Source: an uncultured Candidatus Woesearchaeota archaeon
GTDB lineage: Archaea > Nanobdellota > Nanobdellia > UBA10117
DNA length: 64,000 bases
Assembly: GCA_903864915.1 (NCBI GenBank)
Contig: CAIPHS010000004.1
Coordinates: 3,705 to 67,704, forward strand
Direction: 5' to 3'
Below the pieces are notes generated by a model. It was not told the origin of the DNA and searched no databases. It saw only the letters and a program-made list of their open reading frames with translations. Shown in pieces: positions 4,957 to 8,448 of the stretch. The first letter of the stretch is position 1. Every line of letters begins with the position of its first letter. The position numbers were made by a program, and so were the translations under genes.

Positions 4957-5415
4957 TCATAAATTTAATTCATACCATAACATTTCAAGATTTGGTGCTA
5001 ATTTCTCTTTCCGCACAAATACAAAATTATGAGATTTAAAGAATTCATTATTATCCATAAATTCAAAAGCATCAGCGCGTATCTTATTTATATCTTTAAA
5101 TTTACACTCTTCAATGAACCTATTCAATAGTTTTTCTTCCATGTCATGTTTTTTAGCATTTACATAATGAATCATTGCCGTACTATGATTTTCTTCATAA
5201 CCAACAATAAATCCCACCACATTATTTTTACTAATGGCTACAAAAGCAATCAGTTTGGGGTTTTCAAATTCTTTTAATATGCCATGCTCTTCTGCATGAG
5301 TTCTAAACTTATCAATCATGTCTTTTGGAAATCTGGGATTCGGATATTCTAAATCCGCTAACATTAATACTGATATCTCCTTTGCATGGTTTCTATTTGC
5401 ATTTATTATCTTCAT
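4957..5415 (-). CDS. GNAT-fold protein, degenerate; last gene of putative RiPP operon
   Basis: GNAT-like pattern (FVAISKNNVVGFIVG, FFKSHNF) but no RxxGxG/A motif A loop; overlaps the upstream radical SAM stop. Confidence 0.6.
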   Translation of the reverse strand: MKIINANRNHAKEISVLMLADLEYPNPRFPKDMIDKFRTHAEEHGILKEFENPKLIAFVAISKNNVVGFIVGYEENHSTAMIHYVNAKKHDMEEKLLNRFIEECKFKDINKIRADAFEFMDNNEFFKSHNFVFVRKEKLAPNLEMLWYELNL

Positions 5416-6331
5416 AACTATACCTCAATTGCGAAGCAGTTACCTTGCTTAACTCGCTAGATCCAAACATCTTCGTATATTCCTTCCAAGCAGATTCCCA
5501 AGCCCAAGAACAGTTTTCACTAACCATACACTCGGAACAATAATCTGGTTGAGCCACATCTAAATTTCCGAACTTAATGGTTTCTGGAGATACATAAATC
5601 ATTTCATGAGTCATATGCTTCCAATTTTTGCCTAAATATGGCCAATAAACTGGATCTATCGTACACGAAGGAATTATAAAAATGCCTAAATTTTTATCTC
5701 GTTTAATTGCTTCATCTAACGCATCTTCGATATGCATCTTCATATCTTTGTATCGTACAACAATTTCCTCGCGGTTGTCGCTCGCATCACCGCGCATTAT
5801 TAGGCCGTGAATTGAAACCCAAGCAGACGGAAAGGTATCATATGCGAAACGAACAAAGTCTGATAATTGCTGGTAGTTTTGTTTTAATACAATCGTCTTA
5901 ACTGATATGGGCATGCCTATTTCCTCTAGATTCTTCAGACCAGAAACCGTTTCTAAAAAACTACCTTTTCGTTTAGTAATGGAATCATGTATTTCTTCAT
6001 GATGACTATAAAACGCAGTCATGACCCTATCGACTCCCACTTCCTTTATTTTTTTGGCGAAAGATTTATCGTTGAATTTCCGGCCGTTTGAAAGCATAAT
6101 AAGAGATGTGTTAAAATTAGCCTTTATGTATGTGCAGATGTCGAATAAATCTTCCCGCAGTGTCGGCTCACCACCACTAAGCTCAATATAATCTTCTTCG
6201 GATGGGTGTATTAACTCAAGTTTTTCAATAATTTGATCAATGGATAAACTTCCTTTCTCGTCGGATTTCCTCGCGCAAGAAATGCATTCATTATTGCAAA
6301 CATAATCCGCAACAATAACTATTTTCCTCAT
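5393..6331 (-). CDS. Radical SAM enzyme, HxsC-like peptide maturase
   Basis: CxxxCxxC (CNNECISC), SGGEPT, LSNG, C-terminal IPSC...CSECMVSENC; start placed at ATG 6331 (ATGA overlap with the upstream stop, GGGAG SD). Confidence 0.85.
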   Translation of the reverse strand: MRKIVIVADYVCNNECISCARKSDEKGSLSIDQIIEKLELIHPSEEDYIELSGGEPTLREDLFDICTYIKANFNTSLIMLSNGRKFNDKSFAKKIKEVGVDRVMTAFYSHHEEIHDSITKRKGSFLETVSGLKNLEEIGMPISVKTIVLKQNYQQLSDFVRFAYDTFPSAWVSIHGLIMRGDASDNREEIVVRYKDMKMHIEDALDEAIKRDKNLGIFIIPSCTIDPVYWPYLGKNWKHMTHEMIYVSPETIKFGNLDVAQPDYCSECMVSENCSWAWESAWKEYTKMFGSSELSKVTASQLRYSYEDNKCK

Positions 6332-7236
6332 TTCAAACTCCCAAAACGGGGCGAAAAGTATAAGCAAATAGATTTTTTTGTTATATGCTCAGAAAAAGTT
6401 AAGCCAATATTGCTATAGTCTATCTCTCCACAAGCATCTAAAGTTTTTACAGTTTCATCAAAATCATCAAATCTTTCAGGCACACAAGTCCGTACTAACT
6501 GCTTAACTTCCTCACAAGAAACTTTTCGGCAGGCATCAGCACTAGCATCAAAAAATACCGAAAAACCAGACGTAGGACTTAAATTTCTAGAGTATTTTTT
6601 AGAAAAAGTCACATCTCTTATTTCACCATCAGAAAATAGTTTCTGGAAATGTTCCAAATGTTGCGAAGCAACACCATTTCTTTTCAAATAATCACCTATT
6701 CTTGAAAAATTAACCGTTGTATCTTTGGTGTATACTTTTAGATTTTGTGCCTTGTCTTTATAAAAATCCACAGCCATTAGATAACAGCTTTCAATTTCTT
6801 TTCCATCGAGGCTTGTCAAATCGATATCGACGAGCTCAGATAAATGCTTTACACTTTCAACGGGATTTTCTTTGAATTTGGGGTTGTCAGGCAACCGTAA
6901 AAAATAAACTTTAATTCTTGGATTATTATTGTTAAAATCAAAGCCCAATGCGAATTCAGGAACACTGTCTTTCGCTAAAGATAAGATTCTTTTTAAATTA
7001 GAACACTCACAGTCCATTTTCTCAAGTACGGATAAGATTCTTTGGGTATCGTACAATTTAAATAAACCAAATCTTAAGTCAAATTTAGCGTCAGGGTTAA
7101 CTAAAAGCGAAAATTCTATTTTGCTTTGTAAATTTTCATAGTCAGTATATAGTGAATCATAAATATCCAAAAAATTAGCAAAATCAAATTGATGGAATCG
7201 CCCAAAGTACTCTTCCAAGCACTTAAGCGAATCCAT
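6328..7236 (-). CDS. Putative LynF/TruF/PatF-like (ABBA-fold) peptide prenyltransferase
   Basis: 302 aa; repeated beta-hairpin motifs IEFS...DLRF, LGFDF...RIKVYF, MAVDFY...LKVY and terminal ICLYF match the order of the E, R, K and Y active-site residues of F-family prenyltransferases (recognised by eye). Confidence 0.65.
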   Translation of the reverse strand: MDSLKCLEEYFGRFHQFDFANFLDIYDSLYTDYENLQSKIEFSLLVNPDAKFDLRFGLFKLYDTQRILSVLEKMDCECSNLKRILSLAKDSVPEFALGFDFNNNNPRIKVYFLRLPDNPKFKENPVESVKHLSELVDIDLTSLDGKEIESCYLMAVDFYKDKAQNLKVYTKDTTVNFSRIGDYLKRNGVASQHLEHFQKLFSDGEIRDVTFSKKYSRNLSPTSGFSVFFDASADACRKVSCEEVKQLVRTCVPERFDDFDETVKTLDACGEIDYSNIGLTFSEHITKKSICLYFSPRFGSLK

Positions 7237-7243
7237 TTTTAAA

Positions 7244-7420
7244 TTAATACCAGCTTCCAGGGTCCATGCCTATGTTGTATTTTTGCATAGTTCCTTTCGG
7301 ATTGTCCGAATTTAAAGGCACATATTTGTTTAGTTTTGGAGAATATATTTGTGGTGTGGTGCCATTCCCCCCAGTTATCGGACCACTGCTTTCTTTTTCA
7401 ACAACCGTTTCTAAGCTCAT
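7244..7420 (-). CDS. 58-aa putative RiPP precursor peptide (MSLET...GMDPGSWY)
   Basis: ATG at 7420 with GGAGGT SD 7 nt upstream; first gene of the operon; rich in G, S, T, P and N with C-terminal W-Y. Confidence 0.65.
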   Translation of the reverse strand: MSLETVVEKESSGPITGGNGTTPQIYSPKLNKYVPLNSDNPKGTMQKYNIGMDPGSWY

Positions 7421-7569: not shown

Positions 7570-8448
7570 TTACTTGTATTTTCTGTAAGTTCTAAAAGTT
7601 GGACCGGTACCTTTCACCCCACCAGTAGCGGGCCCCATGGGTTTGAAAAATGGTTCTGTTGCAGGTTCCAGAAACCAATGCCAGACAATAAACATCGCTA
7701 CAGCAGCAATCAACGCAAAAATTATGCTAGTAAATAATCCGAGGTAAAACATCGCCACGCTTACAACCAAGGTGAATATGAAAACGAAAACCCACAGCGC
7801 CCTGTTGCCAAAGAGCACATAGTCGCCTTCCATGTGCGGAGTTTCAAATGGCTCTCCCGGCTTTATCCTTTCGTGACCTTTTTGCAAGGCCAATATCGGG
7901 AGCAGCGTCAGCAGAGGGAGGAGATTGAAAAGTGCCATGTATATGTTGATTATCATCAGTTTTGCACCTATTGGCCCGATGAGTTTTGCAAAAAGTGCGA
8001 GGCCCAGGTTTGCCATCGGTCCGGCCAGACCTATCATTGCCTGCTCTCTTGGCCCAAGGTGCGGGAAAGGCTTGCCAGGCTTGAACAAGCGCCACGGTCT
8101 GATAAGAACTGCCCAAAGCGCAGCAAAGATAATCCATCCGTTTGAAAGGAACATTAAAACTAGCATGGCGATGATGCCGCTGAGCCAGAGTTTTGATTTT
8201 ACCACACCTAAAAATTTTGAAGCAACAACTTTGTGCGCGGCTTCATGTACCAAAACAGATATTGCAACCAGAATCAAAACCAGGAAAAAATTTCCAAACC
8301 AGCTGCCCAAGCTTACAGTCTTTATAAGCTGGCAGCTTTTTGCGAGCCCAAGGCAGGTCTGGTACGAAAACCCGAAAGCGAGTATTAAAATTACGGGAAT
8401 CAAGTCTTTTAGCTCGTTAAGCTCAAAGATATTCTTCCACGCGGCCAT
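7570..8448 (-). CDS. Site-2 protease family (M50) intramembrane metalloprotease
   Basis: HEAAH in a hydrophobic helix, GPMANL, FNLLP, several TM segments. Confidence 0.8.
   Translation of the reverse strand: MAAWKNIFELNELKDLIPVILILAFGFSYQTCLGLAKSCQLIKTVSLGSWFGNFFLVLILVAISVLVHEAAHKVVASKFLGVVKSKLWLSGIIAMLVLMFLSNGWIIFAALWAVLIRPWRLFKPGKPFPHLGPREQAMIGLAGPMANLGLALFAKLIGPIGAKLMIINIYMALFNLLPLLTLLPILALQKGHERIKPGEPFETPHMEGDYVLFGNRALWVFVFIFTLVVSVAMFYLGLFTSIIFALIAAVAMFIVWHWFLEPATEPFFKPMGPATGGVKGTGPTFRTYRKYK

Follow-up and report, generated by a model that had tools for sequence, protein, structure and literature searches.

The stretch analysed here is a 64,000-nucleotide window of contig CAIPHS010000004.1 from an uncultured Candidatus Woesearchaeota archaeon (GenBank assembly GCA_903864915.1). 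Its minus strand carries four closely packed genes that include a predicted aromatic prenyltransferase of the ABBA, or prenyltransferase (PT)-barrel, type. In the order in which they are read, the genes encode a candidate precursor peptide, the prenyltransferase, a radical S-adenosylmethionine (SAM) enzyme, and a protein with the fold of the GCN5-related N-acetyltransferases (GNAT). The open reading frame (ORF) of the peptide (7244..7420, 58 amino acids) begins with an ATG at 7420, preceded by a GGAGGT Shine-Dalgarno sequence at 7432-7427, ends with a TAA at 7244, and has small-ORF homologues in related loci. The prenyltransferase gene (6328..7236, 302 amino acids) starts with an ATG at 7236, 7 nucleotides past the peptide stop, and its TGA shares the sequence ATGA with the start of the radical SAM gene (5393..6331, 312 amino acids counted from a conserved MRK start), which has a GGGAG 6 nucleotides upstream. 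The radical SAM gene in turn overlaps the GNAT gene (4957..5415, 152 amino acids) by 23 nucleotides, and a GAGGT lies 6 nucleotides upstream of the GNAT start. An earlier reading made from the letters of the stretch, hereafter the initial annotation, treated the prenyltransferase as an isolated enzyme; it is in fact part of a conserved precursor/prenyltransferase/radical SAM/GNAT cassette.

The prenyltransferase frame runs uninterrupted over 302 codons, a length that makes a chance origin improbable in a stretch of 37% G+C. The initial annotation had recognized the gene from four motifs, IEFSLLVNPDAKFDLRFGL, ALGFDFNNNNPRIKVYF, LMAVDFYKDKAQNLKVY, and SNIGLTFSEHITKKSICLYF, and all four are indeed found in this minus-strand frame in the order given. 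An AlphaFold2 (AF2) model calculated from a 27-sequence alignment (predicted local distance difference test (pLDDT) score 88.5, predicted template-modeling (pTM) score 0.89) contains exactly five alpha-alpha-beta-beta repeats that form a five-fold barrel. The proposal that the four motifs are barrel strands agrees with the model, which places the first on β1/β2 (residues 40-46 and 54-61), the second on β3/β4 (residues 94-101 and 107-113), the third on β5/β6 (residues 151-159 and 164-172), and the fourth on β9/β10 (residues 272-282 and 288-296). The four strand pairs were thus identified correctly, but a fifth, β7/β8 (VTFSKKY...FSVFFD; residues 209-216 and 224-230), had been overlooked.

When the model is compared with the PDB using Foldseek, all 50 matches listed are aromatic prenyltransferases with a probability of 1.00. 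The top matches are IptA, the actinomycete 5- and 6-dimethylallyl-Trp synthases, PriB, NotF, and CymD, with E-values of ~1e-10, and the query-normalized template-modeling (TM) scores to the bacterial indole prenyltransferases range from 0.62 to 0.72. Sequence searches yield 27 homologues with E-values from 1e-36 to 1e-141. Together with the pTM of 0.89 and the Foldseek probability of 1.00 to prenyltransferase barrels, these homologues place the motif observation far above chance. On the strength of the model, the protein very probably belongs to the ABBA superfamily, and the suggestion of a PT-barrel homologue of archaeal (DPANN) origin is supported.

Placement within the superfamily was examined with hidden Markov models (HMMs). 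Those of the dimethylallyltryptophan synthases (DMATS) detect the window protein below their cut-offs: Trp_DMAT (PF11991) matches with an E-value of 3e-4 and 20.7 bits against a 25-bit cut-off, and TIGR03429 with an E-value of 1.4e-4 and 21.2 bits against a cut-off of 163.85. With each of the 27 relatives scanned singly, Trp_DMAT matches 21 (best E-value 7e-8) and TIGR03429 matches 18, all sub-threshold or marginal; three relatives carry a precomputed PF11991 call. The LynF/TruF/PatF model of the cyanobactin F enzymes, TIGR04445 (cut-off 140 bits), has no match to the window protein at E<=1 and matches one of the 27 relatives with an E-value of 0.0066; DUF5838 likewise matches one. Searches of PDB sequences with the single protein and with the 27-member profile return marginal DMATS1 matches only. 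A profile broadened beyond the 27-member family by adding a cousin family (A5) and relatives of greater divergence reaches SmiF (9vt8) first, with an E-value of 5e-4, followed by NotF (0.026) and 6-DMATS (0.12). As a control, the aligned SmiF fragment was scored against TIGR04445 and obtains 154.8 bits, above the cut-off, and is hence a bona fide member. Because the HMM and structural matches favor DMATS, yet the broadened profile meets SmiF before any DMATS, we place the archaeal proteins on a deep ABBA branch of their own, about equally far from the DMATS and the cyanobactin F enzymes.

The initial annotation had assigned the protein to the LynF/TruF/PatF family, in which case a cyanobactin enzyme would have been transferred to archaea. 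In keeping with that assignment, the protein has the compact size of these enzymes (~300 residues, here 302), the broadened profile reaches a true family member in SmiF, and PagF is a significant structural match (rank 42 in the Foldseek list, E-value 6.5e-8). The family model itself, however, is silent on the window protein and finds a single relative far from its cut-off, and the TM score to PagF is 0.49-0.50, against 0.62-0.72 for the indole prenyltransferases. The PatA, PatG, and PatE context is also missing: the inspected neighborhoods contain neither a PatA/PatG-type protease nor a PatE-type precursor, which upholds the description of the gene as lying outside a cyanobactin cluster. Membership of the family is therefore not borne out, and we regard a transferred cyanobactin enzyme as very improbable.

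The residues expected to form the active site are strongly conserved. Glu41, Ser43, Arg55, Gly57, Glu94, Gly98, Asp100, Lys109, Tyr111, Arg114, Asp157, Lys167, Tyr169, Thr210, Ser212, Lys214, and Tyr293 are invariant across the 27 homologues, so that the candidates noted in the initial annotation for the catalytic Glu and the diphosphate-binding Arg, Lys, and Tyr are all retained. In a 36-sequence set that includes cousins of 17-20% identity, Ser43, Arg55, Lys109, Tyr111, Asp157, Lys167, and Tyr169 are still invariant, while Arg107 and Tyr293 are nearly so once the distant cousins join the alignment. The invariant residues are spaced i, i+2 within the predicted strands and hence lie on one strand face. 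Such spacing would be expected of a single lumen-facing surface, the putative orientation of the pocket being derived from periodicity and homology. HMMER alignments pair EFS...LRFG with IEFSL...LRIGF of NotF and VEFSI...LRIL of 6-DMATS, NLKVY with RLKIY of DMATS1, and CLYFS with VYLS of 6-DMATS. By analogy with FgaPT2-type enzymes, we take these motifs to supply the catalytic Glu and the Arg, Lys, and Tyr that cage the diphosphate. The conserved Arg/Lys/Tyr and Glu set of the ABBA enzymes is thus present at the sequence level, with its lumen orientation read from strand periodicity. The family consensus contains no conserved (N/D)DxxD magnesium-binding motif, and the DDFDE of the window protein (residues 256-260) varies among relatives.

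The genes that surround the prenyltransferase are conserved with it. In tblastn searches, the peptide, prenyltransferase, and radical SAM genes are found together in each of the 12 loci recovered first, about 9 of which are distinct, and the fourth gene in 11; a peptide-seeded metagenome scan added further full cassettes. In every intact locus the prenyltransferase gene either lies close against its partner genes or shares start and stop bases with them. Across loci the radical SAM enzyme is the most conserved protein (63-75% identity) and the prenyltransferase the least (31-50%). The same gene order recurs amid flanks that are unrelated from one locus to the next and include ribosomal protein clusters, Spt5/SecE, HhH-GPD, and toxin-antitoxin genes. 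In two related genomes (L003:4770-9098 and L008:1814-6145) the cassette sits between the L11 gene and Spt5/SecE, within the normally contiguous SecE-NusG(Spt5)-L11 cluster. One cassette (L005:6753-9106) is without a homologue of the fourth gene and has an unrelated GNAT gene on the opposite strand. [quoted passage not shown] In the window, the gene directly upstream on the same strand (7570-8448, minus) encodes a 292-residue polytopic membrane protein that has an HEAAH motif and matches Peptidase_M50 weakly. This M50-like membrane protease gene was considered as a source of the leader peptidase and rejected, since it travels with the cassette in no other locus.

The window genome has one copy of the peptide gene. 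Its product consists of a leader-like N terminus (MSLETVVEKE), a variable linker, and a conserved 35-residue C-terminal part that ends in GMDPGSWY directly before the stop codon. Nine distinct peptides share this organization, with a MSLTQIVEKE-like start, a variable linker, and, running up to the stop, the conserved tail of 35 residues, IYSPKLGKYVPLNSGNPKGEIQKYNVGMGPGSWY; their lengths range from 58 to 74 residues across loci. Met1, Tyr26, Ser27, Tyr33, Gly43, Gln46, Asn49, Gly51, and the PGSWY terminus are invariant in the nine, and additional loci with PGTWY and PGNWY extend the terminus to PG(S/T/N)WY. A search of Pfam and NCBIfam with the peptide gives no match, and a word-indexed homologue search with the 58-residue sequence recovers only itself; the additional loci were found by a back-translated metagenome scan. 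In all related loci the peptide gene lies directly upstream of either the prenyltransferase or the radical SAM gene.

The radical SAM enzyme (PF04055, E-value 4e-19) finds its best family in HxsC (TIGR03977), with an E-value of 3.8e-45 and 154 bits against a cut-off of 267.9 bits, and peptide maturases come next, with the MftC and PqqE models scoring 43-48 bits. Its closest sequence match in the PDB is SkfB (E-value 4e-7). Although its core is HxsC-like, the cassette enzyme is much shorter than HxsC, and its SAM-cluster motif begins at residue 12 rather than at C105/C108. Cys12, Cys16, and Cys19 (CX3CX2C) and Cys223, Cys265, Cys268, and Cys274 are invariant in nine sequences, and the latter four would suffice for one auxiliary cluster, as predicted for a twitch or partial-SPASM-type enzyme. 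No N-terminal recognition domain was found in the radical SAM protein. The fourth protein, modeled with AF2 at a pLDDT of 95.3, matches PaiA (1tiq) in Foldseek with a TM score of 0.82, and its profile matches 3d8p in the PDB with an E-value of 4.6e-5, which together identify a GNAT fold.

The cassette is a rare accessory element that is essentially confined to DPANN archaea. When 1.84 billion representatives are searched exhaustively with the profile, 28 prenyltransferase clusters match at E<=1e-10, and among 185,579 species genomes there are three matching loci, labeled Nanoarchaeota, Woesearchaeota, and a Saccharibacteria bin. The last (L013; CAZDQI010000046.1, 3.8 kb) carries a full cassette; given its 41-72% identity to the DPANN copies, its label, 'Candidatus Saccharibacteria', is probably a binning error and not a bacterial occurrence. 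The organisms named as sources of the fourth gene are Nanoarchaeota, Pacearchaeota, and Woesearchaeota. Within the phylum the prenyltransferase gene is present in 2 of 401 genomes, and in none of the genomes of the same family. A divergent, high-G+C homologue (P0042, L014:651-1577) matches the family profile with an E-value of 9e-28, and no peptide or radical SAM gene is visible beside it on its 2-kb contig. The prenyltransferase clade may therefore extend beyond DPANN without the cassette.

Within the cassette, the prenyltransferase is optional. One locus on a 105-kb contig (L026, 3938-5634) has intact peptide, radical SAM, and GNAT genes and no prenyltransferase. In another (L022, 2540-3230), the peptide gene is followed by the radical SAM gene without a prenyltransferase, and the 3.2-kb contig stops inside the radical SAM gene. 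A third, decaying cassette (L020, 3938-5609) retains a prenyltransferase shrunk to a 61-residue in-frame fusion of its N and C termini; its radical SAM gene has also suffered an internal deletion of ~50 residues that includes the GGEPT SAM-binding motif, while the peptide and GNAT genes are intact. A further locus (L025) is an orphan peptide. On the basis of the absence in L026 and L022 and the remnant in L020, the core system looks like peptide, radical SAM enzyme, and GNAT protein, with the prenyltransferase behaving as a tailoring enzyme that can be dispensed with. Upstream of the radical SAM start in L026, the frame reads MIDSLRKCLPLLFTKFRSK, which is possibly a deletion scar of the prenyltransferase termini. 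This possible scar and the L020 remnant suggest that the prenyltransferase-less cassettes arose by loss; a radical SAM tree built to distinguish loss from ancestral absence leaves 8 of its 10 forks unresolved.

The same loci bear on whether the barrel is catalytic at all. It might be inactive, like PatF, and help the radical SAM enzyme as a chaperone that binds the peptide. Inactive F-type barrels of this kind exist, and a radical SAM enzyme without an N-terminal recognition domain could have use for such a partner. However, the Glu, Arg, Lys, and Tyr set remains invariant at 31-50% identity, even in distant cousins, and partner genes survive in cassettes without the barrel: the radical SAM and GNAT genes in L026, and the radical SAM gene, as far as the contig reaches, in L022. 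A purely chaperone-like role consequently seems to us a highly unlikely account of this conservation.

The tight coupling of the cassette (the 7-nucleotide gap, the shared ATGA, and the 23-nucleotide overlap) and a synteny kept up despite a prenyltransferase identity of only 31-50% lead us to read the enzyme as acting on the peptide. Its function is probably the prenylation of Trp or Tyr on the adjacent, radical-SAM-modified peptide, a reading that draws on gene order and conservation. Direct support exists for the fold, the conserved residues, the synteny and translational coupling of the cassette, its restriction to certain taxa, and the fact that the prenyltransferase is optional; the peptide as acceptor, the modified residue, the donor, the role of the radical SAM enzyme, and the purpose of the product are inferred. 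The soluble PT-barrel enzyme, which has no metal motif, would be a tailoring enzyme of a DPANN ribosomal peptide pathway. In such a pathway, the radical SAM enzyme and the GNAT-fold protein would act first, introducing the core modification into the peptide's conserved C-terminal part. An isoprenyl diphosphate would be held in the barrel lumen by Arg55, Arg107/Lys109/Tyr111, Lys167/Tyr169, Lys214, and Tyr293, and would be ionized by the prenyltransferase. The prenyl cation would then move to either the Trp57 indole or the Tyr58 phenol, and Glu41 would position or deprotonate the acceptor.

Several observations weigh against this proposal. Conservation of the cassette does not extend to a RiPP recognition element, a leader peptidase, or an exporter, and a conserved tail of 35 residues is longer and less variable than is usual for the core of a RiPP. 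The pyrophosphate-binding loop of GNAT enzymes has the signature Q/RxxGxG/A between β4 and α3; an alignment of 26 sequences of the fourth protein contains no such acetyl-CoA loop and no conserved Gly motif at this position, where the consensus reads HYITAxxxExKKxLL. The peptides of prenyltransferase-less cassettes retain the same SWY terminus, and the terminus is therefore set by the radical SAM or GNAT step and not by the prenyltransferase. A comparison of the peptides from cassettes with and without the enzyme finds no residue that tracks it. Given this result and the retained SWY, the prenylated residue cannot be inferred from the peptides. Finally, neither HMG-CoA reductase nor a GHMP kinase is detected in the 650-kb, 83%-complete assembly, in which the controls are positive.

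Some of these points would also be accommodated if the prenyltransferase acted on a free small molecule, such as Trp, Tyr, or an aromatic compound made by the radical SAM enzyme, and the small ORF were a regulator or scaffold. The lack of a recognition element and leader protease, and the persistence of SWY in cassettes without the enzyme, would then need no special explanation. The closest structures also point in this direction, since IptA, the 5- and 6-DMATS, PriB, and CymD all use free Trp or small indoles, and the DMATS HMMs are the main family matches. On the other hand, every intact locus keeps the prenyltransferase gene in tight coupling with that of the peptide, the enzyme's size of 300 residues fits the peptide prenyltransferases PagF and SmiF rather than the DMATS enzymes of 345-470 residues, and the 650-kb genome has no obvious downstream prenyl-Trp pathway. 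We therefore consider a free substrate unlikely and favor prenylation of the peptide.

Prenylation requires a donor, for which the initial annotation had suggested host-derived or long-chain archaeal isoprenoid diphosphates as candidates, and the assembly encodes a polyprenyl synthase (C6:11022-11783, 159.6 bits). With no HMG-CoA reductase or GHMP kinase detected, the mevalonate pathway may be absent from the genome that carries the cassette. This hints that C5 units or prenyl diphosphates are drawn from the host of the archaeon, and remains a hint because the assembly is 83% complete.

The HxsC-like core of the radical SAM enzyme links the cassette to the HXS system, an antiphage system in which HxsB and HxsC mature the effector (PMC13128918). 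A second link comes from the weak tail of the exhaustive search, which consists of a family of ~315-residue proteins that hhalign aligns to the prenyltransferases over 252 columns with a probability of 98.7%. On one contig (L015:1-8945; Logan SRR22388326), a cousin of ~319 residues has an HxsC4-like radical SAM gene on one side and an HxsB-like one on the other. The contig opens with a frame of His-Gly-Ser repeats that ends in ...HGSHGQW and carries a run of seven radical SAM genes of HxsC4-like, HxsB/PapB-like, and HemN-like types; it looks like a variant of an HxS-type system with an ABBA barrel. Because the cousin sits among HxsC4- and HxsB-like genes, barrels of this lineage appear to have been paired with HxsC-type radical SAM enzymes before the DPANN cassette arose.

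These links raise the question of whether the cassette is itself an HXS-like antiviral or conflict system, in which a small effector protein, matured by the radical SAM enzyme and lipidated by the prenyltransferase, would take the place of a secreted natural product. Such a role would be compatible with the proposed chemistry. It would fit the very patchy phyletic pattern, the HxsC assignment of the radical SAM enzyme, and the presence of the prenyltransferase cousin beside a His-Gly-Ser-repeat frame. Two cassettes also lie near defense genes: the L005 cassette adjoins Gabija (GajA, E-value 1.9e-237, with a UvrD-type helicase) and a HerA/DUF87 ATPase, and another is found among HicAB, HEPN-MNT, and PemK toxin-antitoxin modules. 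The majority of the cassette loci, however, lie among ribosomal and other housekeeping genes, and PADLOC has no match for the prenyltransferase, the GNAT protein, or the peptide. The window peptide lacks HxS repeats and has not a single His, and the cassette is without HxsA, HxsB (or any second radical SAM enzyme), HxsD, and a recognition-element partner; with the HxsC score of 154 against 267.9 bits, it falls outside the HXS system as defined. An antiviral role accordingly strikes us as quite unlikely.

Prenylation of the ribosomal peptide, the function we favor, can be set against several known systems. The bacterial DMATS enzymes (IptA, 7w8u; 5-DMATS SCO7467, 6zrz; 6-DMATS, 6zrx; PriB, 5k9m; CymD, 6os3) have the same PT-barrel fold and share the EFS...LR(F/I) and (R/N)LK(V/I)Y motifs with the archaeal enzyme. 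The latter is about 50 residues shorter, 12-16% identical, and below the curated cut-offs, and it is coupled to a peptide gene, whereas the DMATS enzymes prenylate small indoles or Trp as the free amino acid, in alkaloid or nonribosomal peptide synthetase pathways of bacteria or fungi. The cyanobactin F enzymes (PagF, 5tu6; SmiF, 9vt8; TIGR04445) likewise have a compact barrel of ~300 residues and an optional role in RiPP tailoring, but the archaeal cassette lacks the PatA/PatG proteases, macrocyclization, and the cyanobacterial context, and its partners are a radical SAM enzyme and a GNAT protein.

Mycofactocin and PQQ are peptide-derived cofactors; in the mycofactocin pathway, MftA ends in Val-Tyr, and a conserved target peptide with a C-terminal Tyr is likewise found in the archaeal cassette. 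MppC, an ABBA prenyltransferase that acts on a non-cyanobactin RiPP still bearing its leader (PMC12715784), offers a precedent for a peptide-specific barrel outside cyanobactin clusters; it is cyanobacterial, has a lanthionine synthetase as partner, and is compared here by description only. In ComQ/ComX and PalQ/PalX, a Trp at or near the C terminus of a small ribosomal peptide is prenylated, as proposed for the archaeal peptide, and PalQ is specific for C-terminal Trp prenylation (PMC10853753). ComQ and PalQ, however, have the all-alpha fold of isoprenyl synthases, which is unrelated to the PT-barrel, function in bacterial quorum sensing, and have no radical SAM partner.

A literature search turned up neither an account of this cassette nor one of an archaeal ABBA prenyltransferase or of a PT-barrel paired with a radical SAM peptide maturase, and a survey of archaeal RiPPs makes no mention of prenylation. 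Bacteria and fungi are known to have soluble PT-barrel prenyltransferases. RiPP-tailoring prenyltransferases as such are also known; what would be new is one in a new clade, with a new set of partners and in a new domain of life. DPANN archaea have genomes of 0.5-1.3 Mb and are thought to depend on their hosts for lipids, and because of both features an investment of 2.5 kb in a prenylated-peptide pathway is unexpected. Tentatively, and as a possibility that falls short of the probable, we propose that the cassette represents a previously undescribed class of archaeal modified peptide, in which ultra-small DPANN symbionts make a radical-SAM-processed peptide with a prenylated Trp-Tyr C terminus, with the first functional archaeal ABBA prenyltransferase and possibly with isoprenyl diphosphates fed by the host. 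If this is true, the product could serve host interaction as a lipidated signal or a factor anchored in the membrane, or it could be a mycofactocin-like cofactor derived from a peptide or an HXS-like antiviral effector. The cassette provides a concrete, clonable handle on the chemistry between symbiont and host, and a compact barrel that stands between the DMATS and the cyanobactin F enzymes could broaden the toolkit for late-stage peptide lipidation.

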